Of a stretch of DNA of 64,000 bases, positions 36,840 to 52,943 are shown in pieces (positions within the stretch are counted from its first letter, which is position 1; the number at the start of each line of letters is the position of its first letter). Source of the stretch: a virus. The position numbers and the translations under genes were made by a program. The DNA lies in the IMG/VR virus record IMGVR_UViG_3300027801_000011, positions 51,310-115,309 of that record; one strand, written 5' to 3'. Under the pieces are notes generated by a model. It had not been told where the DNA came from. It saw only the letters and a program-made list of their open reading frames with translations, and did no database searches.

Positions 36840-37540
36840 AGATATTAGCATTAAGAATTGGTGATAAGTATGGCCCAGAGTATGAAGACTATTTGAATAA
36901 AAAACTATCCAAATATGACATACATTGGATGCATGAGCCGTATGATGAAAGAGTTACCTTACAGTGGAATAAGATGTGGGGTATGCAGTTGGATCAAAAT
37001 GAGCCTATTTGTGTCATGGACATAGATGTTCTTCTCATGGGCGACTACGAAAGAATATTTGACTATCCTATTATGCGTGGACAATTCCTTGCAATGCCTG
37101 GCTGGTGGAGAGACACAAAGAAAGAAGGTTACTCTATCAACGGTGGATTCTTTAAGTACTATCCGAAGGACTGTAAGTATATCTACGATAAGTTTATGAA
37201 AGATATACACGGGTGGCAGAGACACTACATTGATAATGGGGTTACAAAAGGCCCTGTTAATGGAGAGCAGTACTTTGTCGAAGACTCAGTATTACAAAAA
37301 TTAGAACTTATCACATTACCCAAAGAATGGTTTACTCGCTGGGTTGTAGACTCCGATATTGTAGGTAGGAGTATGACTACATGGCAAGTACAGATCACAC
37401 GTAAGTATCGGGAGATAACAGGGAACGACTATATATTCCTTGGTGGTGAGTTTCATCCAGATATCAAATTCGTACACTTCACACACAGAAATAACAAGCC
37501 TCATGAATGGGAATACTATGAACAAATTCGTTTACGTTAG
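36836..37540 (+). CDS. GT-A fold glycosyltransferase, paralogue of 31947
   Basis: ILALRIGDKYGPEY, WNK, DID (DxD), INGGF, GEQYFV, KFVHFT..NKPH. Confidence 0.8.
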   Translation: MKILALRIGDKYGPEYEDYLNKKLSKYDIHWMHEPYDERVTLQWNKMWGMQLDQNEPICVMDIDVLLMGDYERIFDYPIMRGQFLAMPGWWRDTKKEGYSINGGFFKYYPKDCKYIYDKFMKDIHGWQRHYIDNGVTKGPVNGEQYFVEDSVLQKLELITLPKEWFTRWVVDSDIVGRSMTTWQVQITRKYREITGNDYIFLGGEFHPDIKFVHFTHRNNKPHEWEYYEQIRLR

Positions 37541-38681
37541 TCATGAGTTTCGTACTCTATATCAGAGTATGTACTTCAAGAATACTCAGAAGGTCTGGGA
37601 TACTTCTTGGGTAGATGAAGACTTTAAAGAACAACTTGAATTTAAACTTCAAGAAGAACAACATATGCTTAGAAAATACACAAGGCCTCATACTGCATAC
37701 CTTAATGATATAGAAGGTGAGACTGAGCTTGTATTCAACATGAGTATGAAACATTTTGGTGAGCCCCAGAAATATGAATGGACTGCTGATCTGACAGAGA
37801 AATTTACAGACCTTCTTATGGAAAAAGCGATATCTATTAGAGACAAGGGTAGAAAAATTCAAGTATTATATTCTGGAGGAATTGACAGTTCTGCAGCACT
37901 ACTTGCTTTATATGAGGTTTGTCCTAAAGATCAGATTGAAGTTGTCATGGGAAGAACTGGCGAAGGTGGTGCTGGTTTTAGAGCTAAAGATCAGACTGAT
38001 CCTGTAAAGCAAAATCCTTGGATGTTTGATAATATTGTAAAACATTTGGATCACACATTCACTGATGATTTAAATGGTTACTGTGATCCTAGCAAATATG
38101 TGTTTGTCACAGGCAATGAAGCAGATCGTTTATTCGGGTCTACTGGTTATACTCTAATGACTCAATACTCTAAACCAGATGGTGCTGATTACCAAGAACA
38201 TTGGGGAAAGGCTCCAACTGATGAACTTGATGAAAATTGGCAATGGAACCAAAACAGGTGGTGGGGTATAACTAGGTACACATATCTTATGCAATCTTTT
38301 CGTATGATGGCAAACATTTCATGTGATAAGATTGATATGGACAACTACCAGCCCATGTTCTTTGATAGAAAGATGTTACAATTTGCTATCAATCTACATA
38401 TCCAAAAGAAACATAAGTGGTACAACTGTGGAGCCTTAGCAGATGAGAAGAAATTTAGAGATGGAAAGATGTGGATACGTGACGCTATATTTGATATAAC
38501 TAAAAATAGTTGGGTATCATATAACATGCATAAGACTATTTCATCTGCAACTGATCTTAATAAAAGGCAGTCTGTTCCTCTGCCATTGCGCTTGAAGGTG
38601 TTAGCAATAACAGAAGATGGTACAGTTGTTAATAGAAAAAATTTAATGGAATATGTCTGTAGGGAGTCTTTTACGATATGA
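37518..38681 (+). CDS. Asparagine-synthetase-like N-type ATP pyrophosphatase (PP-loop) ligase, no glutaminase domain
   Basis: YSGGIDSS and TGNEADRLFG; start set to ATG 37518 by alignment with the downstream paralogue. Confidence 0.8.
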   Translation: MNKFVYVSHEFRTLYQSMYFKNTQKVWDTSWVDEDFKEQLEFKLQEEQHMLRKYTRPHTAYLNDIEGETELVFNMSMKHFGEPQKYEWTADLTEKFTDLLMEKAISIRDKGRKIQVLYSGGIDSSAALLALYEVCPKDQIEVVMGRTGEGGAGFRAKDQTDPVKQNPWMFDNIVKHLDHTFTDDLNGYCDPSKYVFVTGNEADRLFGSTGYTLMTQYSKPDGADYQEHWGKAPTDELDENWQWNQNRWWGITRYTYLMQSFRMMANISCDKIDMDNYQPMFFDRKMLQFAINLHIQKKHKWYNCGALADEKKFRDGKMWIRDAIFDITKNSWVSYNMHKTISSATDLNKRQSVPLPLRLKVLAITEDGTVVNRKNLMEYVCRESFTI

Positions 38682-39823
38682 AAAAATTCTGCTATGTAAG
38701 TAATGATTTCAAAAATGCTTGGAGAATATTTTTTGCCAATAAGAAGATGTTATGGGATACCTCTTGGGTAGACGAATCTGTTTTGAAGAGATTCTTTGAA
38801 CTTTATAATAAAGAGAATTCTGATCTGAAGAAGTACTCTCGCCCAGCTAACTGGTATCTTAATGACCTAGAACAAAAGGATACTTATTTGTTTCCTATGG
38901 CACAATCACATTTTAACGGTGCTGGCCAGAAGTATGAATATACAGAGGGGTTGCCTTCTCTTAAAGATATCTTATTAGAGAGAGCCGCTGATATAAGGGA
39001 TCAAGGAAAACCTATTGAAATATTGTATTCTGGTGGGATAGATAGTTCAGCTGTAGTTCTTGCTTTTAATGAAGTATGTCCCAAAGATCAGCTGAAGATT
39101 TGGATGGCAGGAGATCATTGCATTACCAACAACAAAAATCTTTTTGATAAAATTGTTAGTAATTTGGAATGGGAAATGACAACAAATCTAAATGGTTGTT
39201 GTGACCCTAGTAAAAATGTATTCACATCTGGTAATGAAGCAGATAGATTGTTTGGTGCTGATGGTTACACTCAAATGATGGGACACTCAAAACGAGATGA
39301 GAATAGTAAGAACGGATATAAGATACTAGGGCCAAATGAACCACCCACTACAGATCATCCAGACAACTGGCAGTGGAACCAAGACCGATGGTGGGGTATT
39401 ACTAGTCACACATATCTAACACAGTCTTGGAGAATGTTACGTAATGTTGAATGTGATAAAATAGTTATGGATAATTTCCAGCCTTTGTTTTTTGATAAAA
39501 GAATATTACAGTATGCTATAAACATCCATATGGATGGAGAAATGAAGTGGTACAACTCTGGTCTATTGGCTGACCCTCAGAGATACAAAGAGGGCAAGAT
39601 TTGGGTAAGAAATTTTGTTTATGAAATGTCGGGCGATAAAGAATATTCTTATAATATCGGTAAGACATTAACTACTGTATCAGATATAAATGAAATGTTT
39701 AAGTTACCACTGGCTCCAGACTTTAATGTTCTTGGTGTTATGGACGATGGTACTGTTGTAAATAGAGACAATATGATGGAATATATGACCAAAGAACACA
39801 CATTGTTCTCTAATGCTATATAA
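38678..39823 (+). CDS. Asparagine-synthetase-like PP-loop ligase, tandem paralogue
   Basis: YSGGIDSS and SGNEADRLFG; colinear with 37518. Confidence 0.8.
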   Translation: MKKFCYVSNDFKNAWRIFFANKKMLWDTSWVDESVLKRFFELYNKENSDLKKYSRPANWYLNDLEQKDTYLFPMAQSHFNGAGQKYEYTEGLPSLKDILLERAADIRDQGKPIEILYSGGIDSSAVVLAFNEVCPKDQLKIWMAGDHCITNNKNLFDKIVSNLEWEMTTNLNGCCDPSKNVFTSGNEADRLFGADGYTQMMGHSKRDENSKNGYKILGPNEPPTTDHPDNWQWNQDRWWGITSHTYLTQSWRMLRNVECDKIVMDNFQPLFFDKRILQYAINIHMDGEMKWYNSGLLADPQRYKEGKIWVRNFVYEMSGDKEYSYNIGKTLTTVSDINEMFKLPLAPDFNVLGVMDDGTVVNRDNMMEYMTKEHTLFSNAI

Positions 39824-39851: not shown

Positions 39852-40196
39852 ATGGCTTTTACATTAACTACAACGTCTGTCGCAGTTAGAGATGACACAA
39901 GCACACCGTGGTTCCATGAAGTTGATAATGATGCAAGGACTGCCTTTTTAGCTTGGCGTGATACAAATTATATCGACACCAATAAAACTTCTGCATGGTC
40001 GGCTACTGAATCTGCTGATGAGACAACTCTTACTTCTGTACGACAATTTGTAGACAGGGATGGGATAAATGCATGGTTAGCGGAATCCAATGTAAAAACT
40101 CAGATGGCTGCTCGAAAAGTGTATGAAGATGCAAACGGAATTACTAGAACAGGCACAAGGATGCTTTTAGGCAGTTACCTTGCTTTCTCTGGTTAG
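39852..40196 (+). CDS. Late-expressed small protein, homologous to the C-terminal domain of the convergent kinase
   Basis: GAGGAG RBS and double late promoter; R....PW..YIDTNK..SADETTLTS..F.D..YEDANGI. Confidence 0.75.
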   Translation: MAFTLTTTSVAVRDDTSTPWFHEVDNDARTAFLAWRDTNYIDTNKTSAWSATESADETTLTSVRQFVDRDGINAWLAESNVKTQMAARKVYEDANGITRTGTRMLLGSYLAFSG

Positions 40197-40197
40197 T

Positions 40198-41106
40198 TTA
40201 TTCAACAAATGATTCTATACCTTGTTCTTTATTATACTGAGACAGCAATTCTCTTCGTGCCACAATCACTGGGTCTTCTAGATAATCAATGTTGGCTGAC
40301 TTGTCTTTAAATATAGTACGAGACGTTTTTGACAATCCATCCTTAGACATCATCGTATTGGTTGTAATCATTTTGCCAGTATCTCTATATGTTTCCATAA
40401 TATGTGCTTTGTGATCTTCTGATTGCTCTGACCATTCTACATCAACACTTGGTCTAGTCTGGATCAGTATAGTCATATAACCTTTTACTTGAGCGTCAGT
40501 CATTTTCATTCGTTCAAATTTCTGTATAGCATCTGGTTCATCGTGACGCAGAAGGCCTCGCTCCTCTCGTATTCTAATAGAGTTAGCAATAGAAACTCTG
40601 TTCAATACTTCAACAACATCAATATCAATTTTCCAAGGGACATGCTTGTGGTAGTGAGTGAGCAATTCTTCTAGTCCATTCCAACCAATCCAACGGTGAA
40701 CCATTCTAAATTCCCAGTGAGGATTACATTTGGATTTTGCTTCCCAATCTATTAGTCCAGTAAGATTTCCCTGCTCATCTACAAAAATATTCTGTCTCCA
40801 CAAGTCTCCATGAATTATACACCGTTCTTCACCCAAAGGCCCTTTTAGTTCTGCTAAGTCAAACAAAGCATCTTCTATATATTCGTCTTTAGTTGCCATC
40901 GGCATTAAAGACTTTATTACAGAGTGCATTTGGTGTGGACGGATACCTTTGACTCTGAGATTGGTACTGTGTAATTCTCCCAACAAATTTCCAAGTTGCT
41001 CGTTGAATTTACGACTAGGCATTATAGGCCCACCCTTACCATAAGTATGAGCGAGCTGTTCGCCTGGCACGTGCTGGCCCTTTATCATTTGATCTAAAGT
41101 AACCAT
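40198..41106 (-). CDS. APH/choline-kinase-like phosphotransferase fused to an approximately 95-aa domain
   Basis: Brenner motif IIHGDLWRQNIFVD and GLIDWE; LGNLLGELH. Confidence 0.85.
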   Translation of the reverse strand: MVTLDQMIKGQHVPGEQLAHTYGKGGPIMPSRKFNEQLGNLLGELHSTNLRVKGIRPHQMHSVIKSLMPMATKDEYIEDALFDLAELKGPLGEERCIIHGDLWRQNIFVDEQGNLTGLIDWEAKSKCNPHWEFRMVHRWIGWNGLEELLTHYHKHVPWKIDIDVVEVLNRVSIANSIRIREERGLLRHDEPDAIQKFERMKMTDAQVKGYMTILIQTRPSVDVEWSEQSEDHKAHIMETYRDTGKMITTNTMMSKDGLSKTSRTIFKDKSANIDYLEDPVIVARRELLSQYNKEQGIESFVE

Positions 41107-44697: not shown

Positions 44698-45498
44698 ATG
44701 TTAGGACAACAATTTTATCACGAAACAATTCGAAAAGTGGTTATCGCTTTTGGAAGCATGTTTAACGATATACATTTAGTACGAAAAGACAACGAAGGAA
44801 ACATTGCACAGTCAATGAAGGTTCCCTTGGCTTATGGCCCAAGACAAAAGTTTCTGGTTAGGTTGCGAGAAGACGCAGACCTTACGAAACAAGTTGCTGT
44901 TACGTTGCCTCGTATTGGTTTTGAGATTAAGGGTCTGACTTATGATCCTGCTCGTAAACTAAACCGTGTACAACAGTTTAAGAAAGTTAAGAGTGGCGCT
45001 TCTAAGCAACTAGACACACAGTATATGCCTGTGCCTTATAATATTGAATTTGATTTATATATCATGGCAAAGCAATCTGATGATGCTCTACAAATTGTAG
45101 AACAGATTTTACCTTACTTTCAACCAGACTATACGGTAACTATTAATGACAATACTGATATGGGAATCAAACGAGATGTGCCCGTAGTGTTGGGTGGTAT
45201 TACGTATGAAGATACTTATCAAGGCGAGTTTGAGAGTAGACAGACTTTAATCTACTCTTTGCAAATGACTGCTAAGTTCTATCTCTACGGGCCAGTCACT
45301 TCCACTAAGGTTATCAAAACTGTTCAGGCAGATTCATTCGCTGACATGCCAGATAAGACACCTACTAGGGAACAAAGATATACGGTTAGTCCAAAACCCG
45401 CTACTGCTAATGCAGAAGATGATTTTGGTTTTAACGAATCTAGTTCATTCTTCCAAGATGCGAAGTCCTATGATCCAGAAAGTGGAACCGACAAGTAA
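44698..45498 (+). CDS. gp15: Tail sheath stabiliser/completion protein gp15
   Basis: FYHETIRKVVIAFGSMFN, VPLAYGP.QKFL, LPRIGFE, QIVEQILPYFQP. Confidence 0.95.
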   Translation: MLGQQFYHETIRKVVIAFGSMFNDIHLVRKDNEGNIAQSMKVPLAYGPRQKFLVRLREDADLTKQVAVTLPRIGFEIKGLTYDPARKLNRVQQFKKVKSGASKQLDTQYMPVPYNIEFDLYIMAKQSDDALQIVEQILPYFQPDYTVTINDNTDMGIKRDVPVVLGGITYEDTYQGEFESRQTLIYSLQMTAKFYLYGPVTSTKVIKTVQADSFADMPDKTPTREQRYTVSPKPATANAEDDFGFNESSSFFQDAKSYDPESGTDK

Positions 45499-45908
45499 TG
45501 TCTTCTGATCCGATAGGTGAAGCTCTTGGTGTAGTCGAAGAGATTACTAAAGAAGTTGAGGTAATCGGCCCAACTTCTAGATATCCAGCGGAGCTTACAG
45601 ATGGAAATGATGATGACATCGAAGCAGATTATGTTCATCAAAGAAAGATGTTTTATGCTTTGGTCGAGAAAGGGAGTGCCGCAATTGATGGAATACTCAT
45701 GCTTGCTAAAGAAGGCGAACACCCCAGAGCGTACGAAGTAGCGGGACAACTGATAAAGAATGTTGCAGAAGTAACAGAGAAATTAGGCGATCTTCAAGAG
45801 AAAATGAAGAAACTAAAAGAGGTTCCAGGCAATGCGCCGAAGAACGTCACAAATGCCCTATTTGTAGGGTCAACTGCTGAATTGCAGAAAATGTTAAAAG
45901 GAAAGTGA
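45498..45908 (+). CDS. gp16: Terminase small subunit gp16
   Basis: EHPRAYEVAGQLIK, NALFVGSTAELQKML. Confidence 0.95.
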   Translation: MSSDPIGEALGVVEEITKEVEVIGPTSRYPAELTDGNDDDIEADYVHQRKMFYALVEKGSAAIDGILMLAKEGEHPRAYEVAGQLIKNVAEVTEKLGDLQEKMKKLKEVPGNAPKNVTNALFVGSTAELQKMLKGK

Positions 45909-45915
45909 AAATATT

Positions 45916-46167
45916 ATGAGTTTTACACAACCAAAATGGTTTGAAAAATTACCAAGAACAATTGCTAAAGCTGTTACTTGGAGAAGTTGGATGATGATTA
46001 CCAATAGTCTTATTGGGTGGATTGTCACAGGGGATTGGATGAAAGGTTTAGTAGTGGGTTTAATGGCTCTAGTCATTAACAGTATTTTGTATATATGTCA
46101 CGAAAGACTCTGGAATCGGTTTGATTGGAAGAAAGTTTCTTCTGATACAGACAAGATTGTATTATAA
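45916..46167 (+). CDS. DUF2061 small membrane protein
   Basis: RTIAKAVTWR...TG...LYICHERLWN..W. Confidence 0.85.
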   Translation: MSFTQPKWFEKLPRTIAKAVTWRSWMMITNSLIGWIVTGDWMKGLVVGLMALVINSILYICHERLWNRFDWKKVSSDTDKIVL

Positions 46168-46170
46168 ATA
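46163..46170 (+). promoter_or_regulatory. T4 late promoter
   Basis: TATAAATA upstream of the dctP-like gene. Confidence 0.85.
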
Positions 46171-46193
46171 GATACAGATAAAGGGAGACTATT

Positions 46194-47138
46194 ATGAAAA
46201 CCATTCGTTGGGTGCTAGCACACGAACCTATTGAATTATTTCTTAGGGCTGCAAAACATTTTAAAGCAACTATGGAAGAGAAGATGCCGGGCGCTATTAA
46301 CTTGGAAATCTTAACTCTATCAGAATATGCCGAGAAGTACAAGCCTGGCGAGAAGATCACAAAACACGATCTTCTTCAATTGATGGAGGACGGTGAGATA
46401 GAAATGTCTCAGATGTATACTTCTACTCTTGGACGTACTCACGCAAAAGATATGTGGGCCCTAGATATGCCGTTCATCTTTAAAGATCACGATCACGCAA
46501 AAGAAGTGCTTGAGGGTGATATCGGCAAGTCTCTCCTTGCTGGTCTTAATAAGAACAGTAATGTTCAAGGCCTTGCGTTTACCTACTCTGGTGGATTTCG
46601 AATGATCCCTGCTAACGTAGAACTACACAAGATTGAAGACTTTGAAGGTCAGAAGTTGCGTTGCAACAAATCTCCTATCGCAGAAGAAACTCTTAGTGCT
46701 GTTGGTGCTGTCCCTGTTCCTATGGAACTTGAGCAGATCAACGAAGGTGTACAGGGTGATATCATTGTTGGTGGTGAGTCTACTTATCCCCGTTTCTATG
46801 GTTTGAAACAGAATGAGTTCATGGACACAATCAACGATGCAGAACATTCATTGTTCCTTACTACAATTCTTGTTGCTAAGGATTTCTGGAACACTCTTGA
46901 TCTTGAGCTGCAAACCGAAATTGAAGATGCATCTTTTGATGCAGCTAGGGCAGAACGTGTCTGGTCTGTAGAAGACATTGACATTGTTAAGTCCAAATGT
47001 GAGAAAGATACCATTAAGGTAGTCACCATGTCTGATAAGGAACGTCTGCGTTTCAAAGAGGCAACTGAGTATATGTATGAAAAATATGATGATATGTTTA
47101 CGCCAGGGCTACTTCAAAGTATCAAATATGATGCATGA
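46194..47138 (+). CDS. dctP: TRAP solute-binding protein DctP-like, no signal peptide
   Basis: LDMPFIFKDHDHA..VLEGDIG..LL, YSGGFR, IEDFEGQKLR, GAVPVPM, H.LF, FWNTL..ELQ. Confidence 0.88.
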   Translation: MKTIRWVLAHEPIELFLRAAKHFKATMEEKMPGAINLEILTLSEYAEKYKPGEKITKHDLLQLMEDGEIEMSQMYTSTLGRTHAKDMWALDMPFIFKDHDHAKEVLEGDIGKSLLAGLNKNSNVQGLAFTYSGGFRMIPANVELHKIEDFEGQKLRCNKSPIAEETLSAVGAVPVPMELEQINEGVQGDIIVGGESTYPRFYGLKQNEFMDTINDAEHSLFLTTILVAKDFWNTLDLELQTEIEDASFDAARAERVWSVEDIDIVKSKCEKDTIKVVTMSDKERLRFKEATEYMYEKYDDMFTPGLLQSIKYDA

Positions 47139-48325
47139 AAATAATTAATCACTGTTCTCTAACAAGAACATACGGAATACGTCCAGAACTAAAACTTTAT
47201 AATCCTTTAGATTTAGAGGATATTTCTGGCTATGAATCCACTCATATTGGGGAACTGTTCAACAACTTCATCTATGGTTTAGGTGTGTTGGTTGAAACAG
47301 ATGCCCCGTATGATAGACTTGGTAGAGACAACAATCTCAACGTAGATTTCGATCCTATCCCAAAAATCCCAAATAACTGGAATAGAGAATTCGGAGATAT
47401 ATGTGACCAGAGAGCTCAAGAGTTATGGGCCCTGGGAAAACCTATTCGATGTTGGTGGTCTGGTGGTATAGACAGCACCACAACTCTTACTGCTCTTATA
47501 CGAACTAAGAAACCAGAAGACACGCTTAGTATCTGGATGAGCAAACAATCTGTTGAAGAAAATCCTACCTACTACGAAAAAATAAAGAACTTGAATATAG
47601 AGTGGGCTACTAAGGAAACTCTACTAGCAAAGAAATCTCTGTGGAATGGTAAGGTGTTAAATGTCAACGGTGAGTGTGGTGATCCTATGTACGGAACATT
47701 CGTCATTGAAAAACACATAGAAGAACTAGATGATCACTGGCACACATTTCTAGACTTTGAAGATGTAAACTTCATATACAAAGACAGTCCCATGAGAGGA
47801 CGCTTCATGGATTATCTTGAGGAACATATCACTCATTGTCCATTTGAGATTAAAAATCCTTTTGATATCGCATGGTGGTTAGCGTTTACAACCAAGTGGC
47901 AGTGGATAGAACGCCGTTGGTTTGGATTCCTAGAAGACCCATCTGGATATAAAAATCTGGTTGCTTTCTTCAACGATCCAGAGTTTCAGATATGGAGTAT
48001 GACTAATCATCATCTGAAGCATAAGGGAACGTACAAAACATACAAGTGGCCTTCTAAAAAGTACATCTATGATTTTAATCCAGATTCAAATTACTTGATG
48101 AATAAGACAAAAGAAAAAAGTTTACCTAAGACTATGGGGAGCTTTAAAACCTTTCCTTTTAGAAACCAGAATAGAGTTGTATTTGATAACGGTGACTATT
48201 ATCCGTTTGGAGATGATGGAGAGATATTCCCTATCATGCCAACAGACGTACCAAAATGGGATTTATTTAATAAGCCAGTTTGGGATAGATACAAGACTAT
48301 GGAACCTATTCGCATAAATAGTTAA
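47135..48325 (+). CDS. Asparagine-synthetase-like PP-loop ligase (third copy), coupled to DctP
   Basis: WSGGIDST and NGECGDPMYG; ATGA overlap with the dctP stop. Confidence 0.8.
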   Translation: MKIINHCSLTRTYGIRPELKLYNPLDLEDISGYESTHIGELFNNFIYGLGVLVETDAPYDRLGRDNNLNVDFDPIPKIPNNWNREFGDICDQRAQELWALGKPIRCWWSGGIDSTTTLTALIRTKKPEDTLSIWMSKQSVEENPTYYEKIKNLNIEWATKETLLAKKSLWNGKVLNVNGECGDPMYGTFVIEKHIEELDDHWHTFLDFEDVNFIYKDSPMRGRFMDYLEEHITHCPFEIKNPFDIAWWLAFTTKWQWIERRWFGFLEDPSGYKNLVAFFNDPEFQIWSMTNHHLKHKGTYKTYKWPSKKYIYDFNPDSNYLMNKTKEKSLPKTMGSFKTFPFRNQNRVVFDNGDYYPFGDDGEIFPIMPTDVPKWDLFNKPVWDRYKTMEPIRINS

Positions 48326-48340
48326 AATAGGAGAAGAGAG

Positions 48341-48751
48341 ATGCACGAATATGCTTGTAAAGTTGTACACATTGTAGACGGAGACACCGTAGATGTGGAC
48401 ATTGATTTGGGCTTTGGAATTTGGATGAAGAAAGAACGTATTCGATTGTTCGGCATTGATACTCCAGAATCTAGGACTAGAGATTTAGAAGAAAAGAAAT
48501 ATGGGTATGCTGCGAAAGATTACTTAACTGGCATGCTCGATGATGAGTTGATTATGTTGAAAACTCATAAGGATAAAGCTGGAAAGTACGGCCGCATCCT
48601 TGGTGAGTTGTGGCGTACTACTGACTTTGCAGACCAATCCATTAACGAATACATGATTGAGAAACATCATGCAGTACGGTATATGGGACAATCAAAAGAT
48701 GATATTGCTGAAGAGCATATTAAAAACAGAGAGTTTATAACGATAAAATGA
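48341..48751 (+). CDS. Thermonuclease (staphylococcal nuclease-like)
   Basis: IVDGDTVD, RIRLFGIDTPESRT and GKYGRILG; CATAAATA at 48313. Confidence 0.9.
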   Translation: MHEYACKVVHIVDGDTVDVDIDLGFGIWMKKERIRLFGIDTPESRTRDLEEKKYGYAAKDYLTGMLDDELIMLKTHKDKAGKYGRILGELWRTTDFADQSINEYMIEKHHAVRYMGQSKDDIAEEHIKNREFITIK

Positions 48752-50391
48752 ATGACACCGTATATCTTGGTAATCCAAATCTCAAGAGGGCTAATGTCAC
48801 TCAAGAGTGGACTAAGGAAGAATTAGAACAATACGCTTTGTGTATGGAAGACCCAGCGTATTTTATTATGAATTACATTAAGATTGTATCTCTTGATGAA
48901 GGTCTAGTGCCTTTCAAGATGTACGACTTTCAGAAGGATATGGTAGGTACTTTTCATAGTAATCGTTTTACTATCTGTAAATTACCTCGGCAATCTGGTA
49001 AGTCCACAACCATTATTGCTTATCTCCTTCATTATGTTTTGTTTAATGATTCTGTGAATGTTGCTATACTTGCGAACAAGGCGGCTGTTGCCCGTGATTT
49101 ACTATCACGATTACAACTCGCTTACGAACATTTACCCAAGTGGTTACAACAAGGAGTAATGTCATGGAACAAAGGAAGTCTAGAGCTTGAGAATGGTTCT
49201 AAGATTTTGGCGTCTTCTACTTCTGCTAGTGCGGTGCGTGGCGGGTCTTATAATATTATTTTCCTTGATGAGTTTGCTTACGTTCCCGCTAATGTGGCTG
49301 AACAATTCTTCAGCTCCGTCTATCCCACCATCTCCTCTGGTAAAACCTCAAAGGTGATGATCGTTTCCACCCCACATGGAATGAATATGTTTTATAAAAT
49401 GTGGACGGATGCAGAAGAAGGCCGCAACAGTTATGTACCGATAGAGGTTCATTGGAGCGAAGTGCCAGGGCGTGATGAAGCATGGAAAAAAGAAACTATC
49501 AAGAATACCTCAGAGTCACAGTTTAATACTGAGTTTGAGTGTGAATTCCTTGGTTCTATTGATACGCTTATATCCTCTAGAAAGTTGAAGACCCTTGCAT
49601 ATGTACAACCCGCTCAATCTAATGCTGGGTTCGATGTGTACGAAAAACCTATTGAAGATCACACGTATATGTTAACAGCAGACGTTTCACGTGGCACATC
49701 TCTAGATTACTCAGCTTTTGTTATGTTTGATATAACTGAGGTTCCATTTAAAATTGTTGCAAAGTACAGAGATAACGAAATAAAACCCCTTCTATTCCCA
49801 GCGAAGATATACGATGCTGCTAGGGCATACAACACAGCATACGTTTTGATTGAAGTAAATGACATTGGAGAACAGGTTGCAAACACTATGCAGTTTGACT
49901 TGGAGTATGACAACCTTGTTATGGCTAGTATGCGTGGGCGAGCGGGACAGGTACTTGGAGGTGGCTTCTCTGGTGGTAAAGCACAATTAGGGGTAAGAAC
50001 CACAAAGGCGACAAAAAAGGTTGGTTGTTCTAATCTTAAACAGTTAGTCGAAGATGACAAGCTCATAGTTCAAGATTTAGAAATAATTAGTGAACTGTCT
50101 ACGTTTATTGTGAAGGGATCATCTCACGAAGCAGATGACGGGTGTACAGATGATCTAGTTGCCTGTCTGTTCATATTTGCATGGGCCGCCGATCAACAAT
50201 ACTTCAAAGAATTAACTGATCAAGATATTCGAAGGACTATGATGCGAGAACAACAAGACGCACTAGAACAGGACATGGCTCCATTTGGATTTGTAATTAA
50301 TGGTCTAGAAGAAGATAATGTAGGTACAATGGTAGATGAGTATGGTACTAAATGGAATCCTATAGTACGAGATTACGGGACTGATTGGTAA
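48748..50391 (+). CDS. gp17: Terminase large subunit gp17
   Basis: YLGNPNLK, Walker A PRQSGKST, Walker B IFLDEFA, VSTPHG and nuclease DDLV. Confidence 0.97.
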   Translation: MNDTVYLGNPNLKRANVTQEWTKEELEQYALCMEDPAYFIMNYIKIVSLDEGLVPFKMYDFQKDMVGTFHSNRFTICKLPRQSGKSTTIIAYLLHYVLFNDSVNVAILANKAAVARDLLSRLQLAYEHLPKWLQQGVMSWNKGSLELENGSKILASSTSASAVRGGSYNIIFLDEFAYVPANVAEQFFSSVYPTISSGKTSKVMIVSTPHGMNMFYKMWTDAEEGRNSYVPIEVHWSEVPGRDEAWKKETIKNTSESQFNTEFECEFLGSIDTLISSRKLKTLAYVQPAQSNAGFDVYEKPIEDHTYMLTADVSRGTSLDYSAFVMFDITEVPFKIVAKYRDNEIKPLLFPAKIYDAARAYNTAYVLIEVNDIGEQVANTMQFDLEYDNLVMASMRGRAGQVLGGGFSGGKAQLGVRTTKATKKVGCSNLKQLVEDDKLIVQDLEIISELSTFIVKGSSHEADDGCTDDLVACLFIFAWAADQQYFKELTDQDIRRTMMREQQDALEQDMAPFGFVINGLEEDNVGTMVDEYGTKWNPIVRDYGTDW

Positions 50392-51693
50392 TTAAAACCA
50401 CACGAATATAAACGGCATTATATAGAGGGGCCAAGCAATAAACATAGAAGTTATTGCGGTTCTGATAGGATTAGCGCCTGCTATCTTTGCCGCAGTAAAA
50501 GATGATAATGCGACAGGTGGAGTTATCATCGACAACACCCCAAAATACAATACAAACATATGTGCCCAGATTTCAGTGATTCCAGCATCTACTAGAGTTG
50601 GTGCTGCTACGATTGCTACAATAAGGTATGTAGAACTAGTCGGCATACCCATTCCAAGTATTATACACAATATTGCGACTAATGTCAAGAGAAAAAACGT
50701 ATTACCTCCAGATGCTACATTAAGTATAGATGTAATATGAAAACTAAGTCCAGTTTGATCCATTATCCCTATTATAAGACCGATGGCCGCAGATAGTATA
50801 ATAAGACCATACATGCTATCAGCGATAGGGGATACCGAAGCCGTTTTTTTAAAATCCCCTGCCATTGAAATTCTTCCTTTAGGAACTGAACAGAACAGCA
50901 CTGTATAGAACAATACTGCTGGTACAAGTGCCGAGAGTGCCACTGTCCAATAAGATACTTGAAGTATTTCTGCCATGAGAAATGCAGCTGCGCCCATAAC
51001 GGGGGGCATTAGTTGACCACCCGTGGAAGCAACTGCTTCATATGCAGCTGCTTTGTGTTTTTTATATCCACATTGAATCATTAGGGGTATTGTGAGTTGC
51101 CCTGTACTCATTACATTAGCTACAGCACTACCAGAGACACTACCAAATACTGCTGAGGAAAGGATTGCTACCTTGCCGGGCGATTGAACATGTTGTAAGA
51201 TAAATTTGATAATGTAGTCTATAATTCCAAATCTTACCAAGAATTGTCCAGCAAGAACAAATAAGAATACAATACCACACATAATAGACATTGACATACC
51301 AAGCATAGCGGTGTTATCTATAACGATATGTGATATTATATCATAATAATTCCTATCTGTCAAGAGGGGAAATGAAAGAAAACACATTAATATTATGCCG
51401 AACGCTTTGCCGCTTGTCTTAAAGCAAGCATAAACAACGAGCAAACAGAGAGGTATTGATATAAAGTTTAACAGAGTTTTTTCATAATTTGCGTATTCTG
51501 TTAGATATGGATATGCAAACCACATAGCCACACCCATAGAAACTAGTAGTAGACTATATCGTTTGTAAGCGTGTCCTAGAGCTGTGAATAGTATCAGAAC
51601 GAACCACTGCTCATCAAAGGTAGGGTATCCAACATAGAAATCTATGTCAGATACGCTTACCAATAGAAAGAGGGGTAGTAAAAAGTTAGTCAA
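50392..51693 (-). CDS. TRAP transporter fused permease (TAXI-type DctQM), shortened
   Basis: SAVFGSVSGSAVANV.STG..TIPLM, EAVASTGGQLMPPVMGAAAFLMAE, ILGMGMPT..Y, AHMFVLYFG.LS.ITPPVA. Confidence 0.9.
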   Translation of the reverse strand: MTNFLLPLFLLVSVSDIDFYVGYPTFDEQWFVLILFTALGHAYKRYSLLLVSMGVAMWFAYPYLTEYANYEKTLLNFISIPLCLLVVYACFKTSGKAFGIILMCFLSFPLLTDRNYYDIISHIVIDNTAMLGMSMSIMCGIVFLFVLAGQFLVRFGIIDYIIKFILQHVQSPGKVAILSSAVFGSVSGSAVANVMSTGQLTIPLMIQCGYKKHKAAAYEAVASTGGQLMPPVMGAAAFLMAEILQVSYWTVALSALVPAVLFYTVLFCSVPKGRISMAGDFKKTASVSPIADSMYGLIILSAAIGLIIGIMDQTGLSFHITSILNVASGGNTFFLLTLVAILCIILGMGMPTSSTYLIVAIVAAPTLVDAGITEIWAHMFVLYFGVLSMITPPVALSSFTAAKIAGANPIRTAITSMFIAWPLYIMPFIFVWF

Positions 51694-52630
51694 TTAACTT
51701 CAATACTTTATACGCAAATCTAGCGCCATTATGAATAGGAACTCCGCTTTCTTTAGAGTACATATTCTTCCTGTCGAAACCGCTAACCATCTTAGACGAT
51801 TTCTTATAAACCTCAGCATTGTTGTAAAGAGCAATAACCATGCTCGAAACAACTGGAACAGGCACATCTTTATGTGCCCATAAGACATAAGGGAATGTTA
51901 GTACACGTGTTGCACCCCTTACTTCTGGTGTTCTTTTCTTAGGATGTACAGTGGTTACAGAAAAGTTTTTCCAACCATGTAGCAACCTTTTTTCTGCTTC
52001 TCCTCCATTGAGAGATAAAACACGGATACCACCGTCACTCAAAGCCTCAGCATGTAATTTCTTAGTATGGCCTGCACCAATAGCAACAATAGTCACATCC
52101 ACCCGTCCTTGCCGAAAGGCGTTCCAATTGCCTGGCAAAGAAGTTACTGGTACACGTTTAACGTCATCCCACACTAGAGCGGGGTTAGAATTAAGTAGTT
52201 TGTGTTTAATATTCCAATGGAATCCAGGCGCTCCACGAAATCCAGAAGGCACTCGTTTGCCCTTTAGATCATCATAGTTTTTGATGCCTGAGTTATCCCG
52301 AACAGCAAGTCCTGTCTGGAAGAAGTGTAAATTAGCCACAAAACGTAGATTTTTGTGTGCTTTTTTTGATGTACGGATACCTGTGTATCCCCAATAAAAG
52401 TCCGTAGGATTGCTAATCCCAAAGTCTAGTTCTTTATTATCAACCTTTTCAAGATAAGATTGAGTACCACGATGAGGGATGGGGGTTAATGTTAATCCAG
52501 CCGCTCTCATAGTTTTCGCAAGTGCAAGGCCAGTTTGTGCATTAGCACTGCCCTTTGTAGTCCCTAACGTCTCAGCTAAAGATGTAGTTGTCATGGCGAC
52601 TAATACTAGTGCCGCAATAATGAATTTCAT
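51686..52630 (-). CDS. TAXI-family TRAP solute-binding protein with Sec signal peptide
   Basis: CAGGAG RBS then MKFIIAALVLVAMTTTSLA; NLRFVANL, DSGIK..DDLKGKRV-like segment, VPIHNGA..Y. Confidence 0.85.
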   Translation of the reverse strand: MKFIIAALVLVAMTTTSLAETLGTTKGSANAQTGLALAKTMRAAGLTLTPIPHRGTQSYLEKVDNKELDFGISNPTDFYWGYTGIRTSKKAHKNLRFVANLHFFQTGLAVRDNSGIKNYDDLKGKRVPSGFRGAPGFHWNIKHKLLNSNPALVWDDVKRVPVTSLPGNWNAFRQGRVDVTIVAIGAGHTKKLHAEALSDGGIRVLSLNGGEAEKRLLHGWKNFSVTTVHPKKRTPEVRGATRVLTFPYVLWAHKDVPVPVVSSMVIALYNNAEVYKKSSKMVSGFDRKNMYSKESGVPIHNGARFAYKVLKLID

Positions 52631-52631
52631 A

Positions 52632-52943
52632 TCATACTCCTGTAATAAATTCAATTAGATCGTTGTCGAGCTTAATCCAGCAATTGGAGCAAACAACAAA
52701 TGATTCACGAATAAGGGCGAACACTTCTTGTCTGCTTTCATTACTAGTTCCTACTCGTTTGGTTAGTTTACGGATTTCAGAGTTATGTGGATAAAACTTG
52801 AGGCAAACCGTCTCAGACTCGCCACAGTGTTTACAGTGCTTATCTCCTAAATATTCATTCAAGATAACAATACGTTTACGATAATTGCGTCTAGCAACCT
52901 TCTTAATCGTATCCTTATATTTTTCATAATGAGCATTTACCAT
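52632..52943 (-). CDS. HNH-endonuclease-like Zn-binding protein, degenerate active site
   Basis: CKHCGE...CLKFYP...VVCSNCW; the usual LxFHH and CxxCH His residues are substituted. Confidence 0.65.
   Translation of the reverse strand: MVNAHYEKYKDTIKKVARRNYRKRIVILNEYLGDKHCKHCGESETVCLKFYPHNSEIRKLTKRVGTSNESRQEVFALIRESFVVCSNCWIKLDNDLIEFITGV

Follow-up and report, generated by a model that had tools for sequence, protein, structure and literature searches.

The solute-binding proteins of TRAP (tripartite ATP-independent periplasmic) transporters are textbook exported receptors. The periplasmic-binding-protein fold also occurs in cytoplasmic enzymes, THI5, MqnA/MqnD and HisG. AsnB/ASNS, beta-lactam synthetase, carbapenam synthetase and TsnB9, on the other side, all activate a carboxylate by adenylation and turn it into an amide or a lactam. 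Here we describe a 64,000-nucleotide stretch of viral DNA (positions 51,310 to 115,309 of the IMG/VR virus record IMGVR_UViG_3300027801_000011; hereafter the window) in which a gene for a DctP-family, TRAP-type solute-binding protein of 314 amino acids without a leader (46194-47138, + strand) is joined to a gene for a glutaminase-less, asparagine-synthetase-like PP-loop ATP enzyme of 396 amino acids (47135-48325, +; assigned from motifs and predicted fold), referred to below as the ligase. Just upstream of both lies a gene for a small DUF2061 membrane protein of 83 amino acids, a helical hairpin (45916-46167, +). The source record is 115 kb long with a completeness estimate of 64%, and the phage is a marine T4-like myophage, its TerL sharing 68-70% identity with the TerL proteins of Methylophilales phage Melnitz and Pelagibacter phage HTVC008M. 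The leaderless DctP is a new functional variant of a well-known family, widespread in uncultured marine phages, and we tentatively favor, at somewhat less than an even chance, that it is a cytoplasmic acid binder which links uptake to ligation late in infection.

Translation from the ATG at 46194 gives the N-terminus MKTIRWVLAHEP, which places the start 5 residues ahead of the first strand of the mature fold. The Pfam alignment pairs residues 17-298 with profile positions 12-283 (E 5e-44), and since the match opens at profile position 12 with residue 17, the protein begins where mature receptors begin. Within the first 36 residues the peak 12-residue hydropathy is 1.0, as against 2.87 for the leader of a TAXI-family binding protein of the same phage; the latter served as an internal control, which shows that the phage does encode classical leaders. 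Neither a leader nor a lipobox nor a twin-arginine motif was found at the N-terminus of DctP. A hidden signal peptide supplied by an upstream start was ruled out, because an in-frame TAA (46179-46181, +; sequence reading), four codons 5' of the start, leaves room for four codons only. A preliminary description of this DNA, made from the letters alone, had claimed a mature-like start without hydrophobic leader and had named an upstream start as the point on which that claim could fail; the hydropathy, the position of the start and the TAA all bear it out. Judged from its sequence, DctP cannot be a classically exported uptake receptor, as it is without a leader, without a possible extension and member of a subfamily that is itself leaderless.

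The protein is otherwise a regular member of its family. It matched Pfam PF03480 with 151.2 bits (cutoff 23.4) and NF037995 (TRAP_S1) with 95 bits (cutoff 50), and scored 124 bits against TIGR00787 (dctP), which is under the cutoff of 175. A profile of the subfamily retrieved solved TRAP receptors from PDB (E 1.6e-37). The AlphaFold2 model, with a predicted local distance difference test score (pLDDT) of 95.8, was matched by Foldseek at E 2e-27 and superposed over about 311 columns on SiaP, PA5167, 4n8y, 4p47 and IseP (8t9t) with template modelling (TM) scores of 0.78-0.87. R156, the arginine of the KLR motif which had been pointed out earlier as the conserved one, corresponds in the alignment to the Arg of the 4n8y motif LKIRV and is at least 90% conserved among 44 sequences, in which R136 is invariant along with the polar residues H10, H99, H101, E195, R200, H218, E254 and R255. 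A metal-site reading of the invariant His and Glu residues was dropped, as these positions are generic to the DctP family. A decaying remnant was likewise rejected, the gene being intact and 55-95% conserved with its binding residues kept. DctP is thus a complete receptor, and probably a ligand-competent one.

The T4-type late-promoter motif TATAAATA occurs at 12 sites in the window as against 6.0 expected, a count reached by none of 100 shuffles, and these sites lie mostly just 5' of gene starts. One of them (46163-46170, +) overlaps the stop of the DUF2061 gene, 24 nt 5' of the DctP ATG, and the Shine-Dalgarno sequence GGGAG (46183-46187, +; sequence reading) stands 6 nt 5' of the same ATG. 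The motif is kept 5' of DctP in 12 of 12 distinct upstream sequences from the window's lineage, and relatives keep a purine-rich Shine-Dalgarno sequence there. The TGA of DctP (47136-47138) overlaps the ATG of the ligase (47135-47137) as ATGA, and no terminator-like site was found between DctP, ligase, nuclease and TerL. The promoter, the ribosome-binding site and the ATGA overlap were thus found at the positions where the preliminary description had put them.

Leaderless copies are by no means confined to this phage. The protein database contained 1838 homologues of DctP, of which the best 120 are 55-95% identical and mostly 313-323 amino acids long. The N-terminal strand motif is kept in 114 of these 120, the other six being truncated fragments. 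Of the 114 that retain the N-terminus, 112 have the motif no more than 16 residues from the start; the remaining two have longer extensions, non-hydrophobic or doubtful. A profile scan located leaderless DctP in at least 459 viral stretches of IMG/VR, and a scan of one genome per prokaryotic species gave 25 cellular loci, 15 of them in Bdellovibrionota and the others in Saccharibacteria, Nomurabacteria, Elusimicrobia and various proteobacterial metagenome-assembled genomes. The subfamily is concentrated in marine T4-like phages and in bacteria living off other cells. Six Bacteriovoracaceae copies (39-46% identity) have classical leaders while all closer copies are without them. In a quick maximum-likelihood IQ-TREE phylogeny, midpoint-rooted only, the leaderless copies, bacterial ones included, form one clade with a Shimodaira-Hasegawa-like approximate likelihood ratio test (SH-aLRT) support of 100, and the 23 phage copies form one clade nested within it, which suggests that the phage captured an already leaderless protein. 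The earlier view that this particular copy had been repurposed by the phage does not stand, since loss of the leader is common to the whole clade.

No homologue from a cultured phage came up in a tblastn search of 50,697 phage records: DctP returned four distant matches only (23-28% identity), three in unannotated fragment records and one in a Salmonella bacterial contig; the ligase gave one distant match named 'mnmA' and DUF2061 one weak match. Full-text literature searches found no description of leaderless DctP proteins, and neither a paper on pelagimyophages (PMC7029224) nor a review of TRAP and TTT transporters (PMC5812351) mentions such a protein. A eukaryote transcriptome assembly (a Trinity contig of EukProt) contained a 66%-identical homologue (P0060), which presumably comes from a co-sampled phage or bacterium and indicates that the gene is transcribed somewhere. 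It may be noted that the signal-bearing Bacteriovoracaceae relatives (L050, L051, L052, L055, L056, L059) are orphans too, without dctQM nearby, and adjoin either methylmalonyl-CoA mutase and MeaB genes or an ABC transporter of the NMT1 type, accompanied by MBOAT and AMP-ligase genes. A link to flagellin glycosylation in the Bacteriovorax loci was considered and dropped, as the neighbours are housekeeping-like.

The ligase carries SGGIDS at residues 109-114, of which S109, G110, G111 and D113 do not vary among 70 family members, and also a GECGDPMYG motif, which seems to resemble the SGEG.DE.FGGY motif of AsnB-type enzymes. Its 396 residues had no sequence match in Pfam, NCBIfam, PHROG or PDB; Pfam Asn_synthase (PF00733) did not match even at E 1, and was matched weakly by 6 of 70 ligase relatives (best E 2e-5). 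The ligase-family profile matched LarE, TilS, NAD synthase, AsnB and QueC at the SGGxDS motif only. The AlphaFold2 model (pLDDT 89.3; predicted TM score 0.92) was closest to beta-lactam synthetase, TsnB9, human ASNS, E. coli AsnB and carbapenam synthetase (VIA Z 13.9-11.1), as compared with Z 7-9 for other PP-loop enzymes (9.4 or lower for GMP synthetase, NAD synthetase, LarE and TilS). The matches to AsnB-type synthetase domains cover residues 69-370. No N-terminal nucleophile (Ntn) glutaminase domain was found, as only about 70 residues precede the synthetase domain and, in the targets, the matches start within the synthetase portion. The label of PP-loop ligase given at the outset is thus sustained at the level of motif and fold, and going by the model the enzyme is expected to adenylate a carboxylate and then to form an amide. 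The family comprises 1283 representatives at 50% identity and is mostly viral in the atlas, where its automatic name is 'asparagine synthase family'. Two further PP-loop-family paralogues (413 and 381 amino acids; 37440-39823, +) lie in a tailoring island of the window and matched the protein at 47135 by BLASTP with E 4e-6 and 3e-10, centred on the SGGIDS region.

A glutaminase-less asparagine-synthetase homologue has been described in Synechococcus phage S-B43, where CmoY, an amide ligase that depends on ATP, adenylates the carboxyl of 5-carboxymethylcytosine in DNA and adds glycine to it (PMC12783734). A DNA modification of this type was considered for the window and rejected: the S-B43 genome gave no match to the window's ligase-family profile and contains no DctP, and no CmoA, CmoX or C5-cytosine methyltransferase was found, by way of PF00145 and TIGR00740, in the 115-kb record, which at 64% completeness does not prove their absence. 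Small proteins of about 100 amino acids with the motif TRPxT..W[FY] were seen in the window (39852-40196, a small late protein of 114 amino acids, and the stretch 40198-41106) as well as elsewhere (L011:4825-5743; L078:9193-9495). This family adjoins DUF2061-DctP or ligases in several phages, occurs as three tandem copies in L011 and L012, and also sits beside an APH-type kinase; its members could be an acceptor or carrier for the ligases.

Viral loci with at least 1.5 kb on each side of DctP (n=57) were taken as informative. In 45 of them DctP has a PP-loop gene within 300 bp and in 52 within 3 kb, and among the first 37 viral loci such a gene flanks the DUF2061-DctP pair in about 30. At least six gene orders were found: DUF2061-DctP-ligase, three ligases then DctP, c30-ligase-DctP, DctP-DctP-ligase, DUF2061-DctP-ligase-ligase located after the gp41 helicase gene, and ligase-DUF2061-DctP-ligase located before gp13. 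One of the five apparent exceptions, L191, does hold a divergent PP-loop protein. On the cellular side a PP-loop gene is near the leaderless DctP in seven loci (Bdellovibrionota, Burkholderiales, Xanthobacteraceae, Nomurabacteria), among genes for BKACE, short-chain dehydrogenases/reductases (SDR) and AMP-forming ligases, while a second cellular context, in the order Crp, major facilitator superfamily (MFS) transporter, unknown gene and DctP, is without ligase. Conservation of the linkage, on which the preliminary description had staked its case, holds across many phage lineages and several cellular genomes. The PP-loop gene often has directly 5' of it, in five cellular and at least 12 viral loci, a gene for an unknown protein of 230-270 amino acids, c30 (for example L038:5740-6549, L041:9152-9853 and L187:5018-5719), which had no Pfam or NCBIfam match and seems to be the ligase's private partner.

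The DUF2061 protein upstream of DctP, as noted in the preliminary description, was confirmed with PF09834 (53.4 bits, cutoff 23.1; E 3.6e-14), the full 52-position profile being covered. Of its two helices, the one at residues 44-62 is hydrophobic and the one at 25-38 more weakly so; the loop measures about 5 residues, and the termini are K/R-rich. By the positive-inside rule these termini face the cytoplasm, so that DUF2061 could contact a cytoplasmic partner and hardly a periplasmic one; a contact with DctP is what we infer. Of the 57 informative viral loci, 42 have this gene no more than 300 bp from DctP, and the first 37 viral loci have it immediately 5' of DctP wherever upstream DNA exists; among the cellular loci it adjoins DctP in L041 only. 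The sole functional hint found for the family is iron or Fur regulation, the DUF2061 genes CC_0155 of Caulobacter and SO_4740 of Shewanella being on iron-limitation or Fur-regulated lists (PMC3751524, PMC12442407).

When the window was compared at the nucleotide level with L004-L006, L009 and L036, DctP was 94-95% and DUF2061 88-92% identical, as against 71-86% for gp15, TerS and TerL and 69-71% for the ligase. Furthermore, L009 and L036 have the DUF2061-DctP pair elsewhere in the genome, and the ligases next to it are other ones. Identity of the pair above that of its flanks, together with the change of position, suggests that DUF2061-DctP was recently exchanged among diverged phages, and the co-moving unit, as read from these sequences, is DUF2061 plus DctP. 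The ligase behaves differently. About 59 ligase loci have the order gp15-TerS-ligase-(nuclease)-TerL-HNH-sheath without DctP, DUF2061 or TAXI-TRAP, which makes the ligase a regular resident of the TerS-TerL slot and the dependence a one-way one; in the window's lineage the DUF2061-DctP pair would have been inserted in front of this resident ligase. L001 and L002 are 99-100% identical to the window from gp15 through TerL, but only 84% in DUF2061, whereas the window's DUF2061 is nearer to the copies of L005/L006 (92%); such a drop amid nearly identical flanks indicates that recombination breakpoints flank this 250-bp gene.

We also looked at the importers that occur near leaderless DctP. The preliminary description had stated that no DctQ or DctM is adjacent, which is true of the immediate neighbours; yet a DctM-type fused permease and a signal-bearing TAXI protein are encoded 3.2 kb downstream of DctP, as a TAXI-TRAP pair on the opposite strand. 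The permease has 433 amino acids (TAXI-type fused TRAP permease; 50392-51693, -; PF06808 E 2e-56; TIGR02123 332 bits, cutoff 320.65), and its TAXI-family binding protein carries a classical signal peptide (51686-52654, -; TIGR02122 94 bits, cutoff 84.35; PF16868). TAXI-TRAP follows TerL in six of six assessable phages that carry DctP in the TerS-TerL slot. In a second lineage (L078, 1732-10052, and L084) the order is three ligases, DctQ (E 2e-20), DctM (E 7e-54), an exported DctP of 362 amino acids with signal peptide, leaderless DctP, the 100-amino-acid protein and the APH-type kinase; DUF2061 is absent, and no similarity between the exported and the leaderless DctP was detectable by BLASTP. 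In a third (L191, 2690-11291, and L192) a fatty-acid-desaturase-like gene, the divergent PP-loop gene, TctA (E 1e-35), a signal-bearing protein of 276 amino acids with no family match, leaderless DctP and two glycosyltransferase genes follow one another. One of these glycosyltransferase genes in L191 is fused to a methyltransferase, and that locus lies just before the neck genes; desaturase-like genes recur near the cellular DctP copies L038, L040 and L061. Neither dctQ nor dctM adjoins leaderless DctP in any of the 25 cellular loci, nor in most of the viral ones. Since an adjacent importer brings its own exported receptor, the leaderless DctP looks like a second, internal binder and not the periplasmic partner. 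The earlier statement that this is not a nutrient-uptake gene is therefore right as far as classical export goes, but it misses the importers, which three independent phage contexts place next to leaderless DctP or not far from it and which indicate that uptake is probably the first step of the whole module.

Putting these observations together, we infer a cytoplasmic function for DctP, a contact with DUF2061, a hand-off to the ligase and a link to uptake. An organic acid would be imported by a binding-protein-dependent secondary importer, here the late-expressed TAXI-TRAP and elsewhere DctQM or TctA, or could alternatively come from the host pool. The leaderless DctP, probably held at the inner face of the membrane by the DUF2061 hairpin, would bind the acid inside the cell, and the asparagine-synthetase-like ligase would adenylate the carboxylate with ATP and join it to an amine to give an amide. 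The DUF2061-DctP unit would be read together with the ligase from the late promoter, the two being coupled by the ATGA overlap. A wider version, which we consider unlikely, makes the leaderless DctP a 'receiver' for TRAP, TAXI-TRAP and TTT importers in general, in a two-sided capture-and-ligate uptake used by phages, predatory bacteria and episymbionts: an exported receptor would deliver the solute outside, and an internal one, tethered by DUF2061 or docked on the permease, would capture it inside and pass it to the amide ligase.

Several observations weigh against a cytoplasmic binder that serves the ligase. The ligase family is large, with at least 534 viral stretches in a profile scan and three paralogues in the window itself, and 66 of 76 new ligase-family loci are without DctP, only ten having it within 5 kb. 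The pairing proposed in the preliminary description is conserved as a linkage, but the ligase does not need DctP, and the partner with which DctP is co-inherited is DUF2061. As the TerS-TerL slot takes up variable insertions, the juxtaposition could be positional, and three to four lineages (L008/L010, L162/L163, L202) have DctP with no PP-loop gene within 4-7 kb. Adjacency is what ties DctP both to the ligase and to DUF2061; no DctP-ligase fusion turned up in a search for longer proteins, itself a weak one, and the ten longer ligase relatives had only a leucine-rich-repeat tail plus a weak Asn_synthase match. As to uptake, strict co-occurrence of TAXI-TRAP with the DctP cassette was rejected, because about ten related phages have TAXI-TRAP and no DctP in the slot; L025-type phages showed no DctM in records that are 36-70% complete, and direct adjacency of a transporter was seen in two other lineages only, with none further in the fetched loci.

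The main rival takes DUF2061-DctP as a self-contained unit, either a membrane-associated sink or an inner-face sensor or regulator, which shares islands with ligases and passes no substrate to them. It draws on the transfer of the pair independently of the ligase, on its presence in L008/L010 without a PP-loop gene, on the Crp-MFS context in cells and on the response of DUF2061 genes to nutrient status (induction in Caulobacter and Shewanella when iron is limiting or Fur is lost). We nevertheless find it rather unlikely, as 15 of the 57 viral and nearly all cellular loci are without DUF2061 and yet keep the link to the ligase, and as the PP-loop gene is adjacent in too many independent arrangements for chance. 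The very high conservation, with 55-95% identity between phyla and polar residues that are in many cases invariant, could be read as that of an enzyme, or of a substrate-holding subunit like THI5, MqnA/MqnD or HisG, working on a carboxylate intermediate, and the cellular neighbourhoods with BKACE, SDR and AMP-forming ligases would suit it. Most of the invariant residues, however, are generic DctP-family positions, and the model superposes on ordinary receptors (TM 0.8-0.87) with no added elements. No catalytic precedent is known within PF03480, and we consider this explanation improbable.

A protein expressed from a late promoter among structural genes might also travel with the virion, needing no export signal, and recognize the host as a lectin-like binder of acid sugars. 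The nearest solved folds do include sialic-acid binders, and certain phages have the cassette ahead of their neck genes, within the tailoring or host-recognition region and beside glycosyltransferases. Against this the 314 amino acids are the receptor fold alone, with no attachment domain, the constant pairing with a membrane protein fits poorly, and leaderless copies occur in cellular genomes while in other phages the cassette is in the replication module; we judge a virion role highly improbable. Least probable of all, to the point that we would be surprised by it, is an ordinary periplasmic uptake receptor that is exported by another route and feeds host DctQM or the phage's TAXI permease. 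The family is defined by exported receptors, the six Bacteriovoracaceae relatives (39-46% identity) have leaders, and a permease is encoded 3.2 kb away; but DctP has no leader, lipobox or twin-arginine motif and no room for an upstream extension, the phage permease is paired with a signal-bearing TAXI protein of its own, and where DctQM stands beside a leaderless copy it comes with a separate exported DctP that is dissimilar by BLASTP.

The cassette stands among structural genes. A gp15-like gene (44698-45498, +) and TerS (45498-45908, +) precede DUF2061, and the ligase is followed by a staphylococcal-nuclease-like gene (48341-48751, +; PF00565 E 8e-13) and TerL (48748-50391, +). The nuclease-like gene is habitual in the TerS-TerL slot, where many relatives have it with or without DctP. 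Beyond the TAXI-TRAP pair lies a small HNH-like gene of 103 amino acids (52632-52943, -), and the tail sheath gene runs from 53062 onward (+). The HNH-like gene is found in the TerL-sheath interval of essentially all related phages, whether TAXI-TRAP is inserted beside it or not, and L109, L130 and L138 have a different insert of about 1.7 kb at this site. GC content is about 39% throughout, so that none of these genes looks freshly acquired.

Annotation pipelines label the leaderless DctP gene as an auxiliary metabolic gene for dicarboxylate uptake. What has emerged here is a large and strongly conserved leaderless subfamily, with over 1800 homologues in metagenomes, tied to uncharacterised, mostly viral asparagine-synthetase-like ligases and sometimes to complete importers. 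Should the cytoplasmic role be true, it would establish a new functional class within a well-studied transporter family and would correct a systematic mis-annotation in surveys of viral metabolic genes. It would also offer, in a soluble and easily expressed binder, a handle for identifying the metabolite that these phages, abundant in the ocean, would capture and transform in late infection.

As compared with known systems, THI5, MqnA/MqnD and HisG show the same broad fold class at work inside the cell, but they belong to other families with established catalysis. The class II synthetase domains (AsnB/ASNS, beta-lactam synthetase, carbapenam synthetase, TsnB9) share SGGxDS and the best fold matches with the phage ligase, and seemingly the GE.GD..[FY]G motif as well; the phage enzyme differs from class II amidotransferases in having neither a glutaminase domain nor a Pfam Asn_synthase match. 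CmoY gives a precedent for a glutaminase-less, AsnB-like amide ligase in a phage, the likeness being at the level of superfamily and mechanism only. Orphan binding proteins, such as the Bug proteins of Bordetella and AdpC, are likewise encoded away from a membrane component (PMC5812351), but these are exported proteins of the TTT family, whereas the phage protein is leaderless and of the DctP family; no cytoplasmic binding protein is described in that review. With the DctP-family TRAP receptors (SiaP, PA5167, 4n8y, 4p47, 8t9t) the phage protein shares the two-domain fold and the carboxylate-binding pair of arginines. It differs from them, as does its whole subfamily, in being without a signal peptide, and is paired with DUF2061 and asparagine-synthetase-like enzymes rather than with DctQM. 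The phage DctP is thus a member of the family by sequence, fold and binding residues, and departs from it in export and in the partnership with DctQM.

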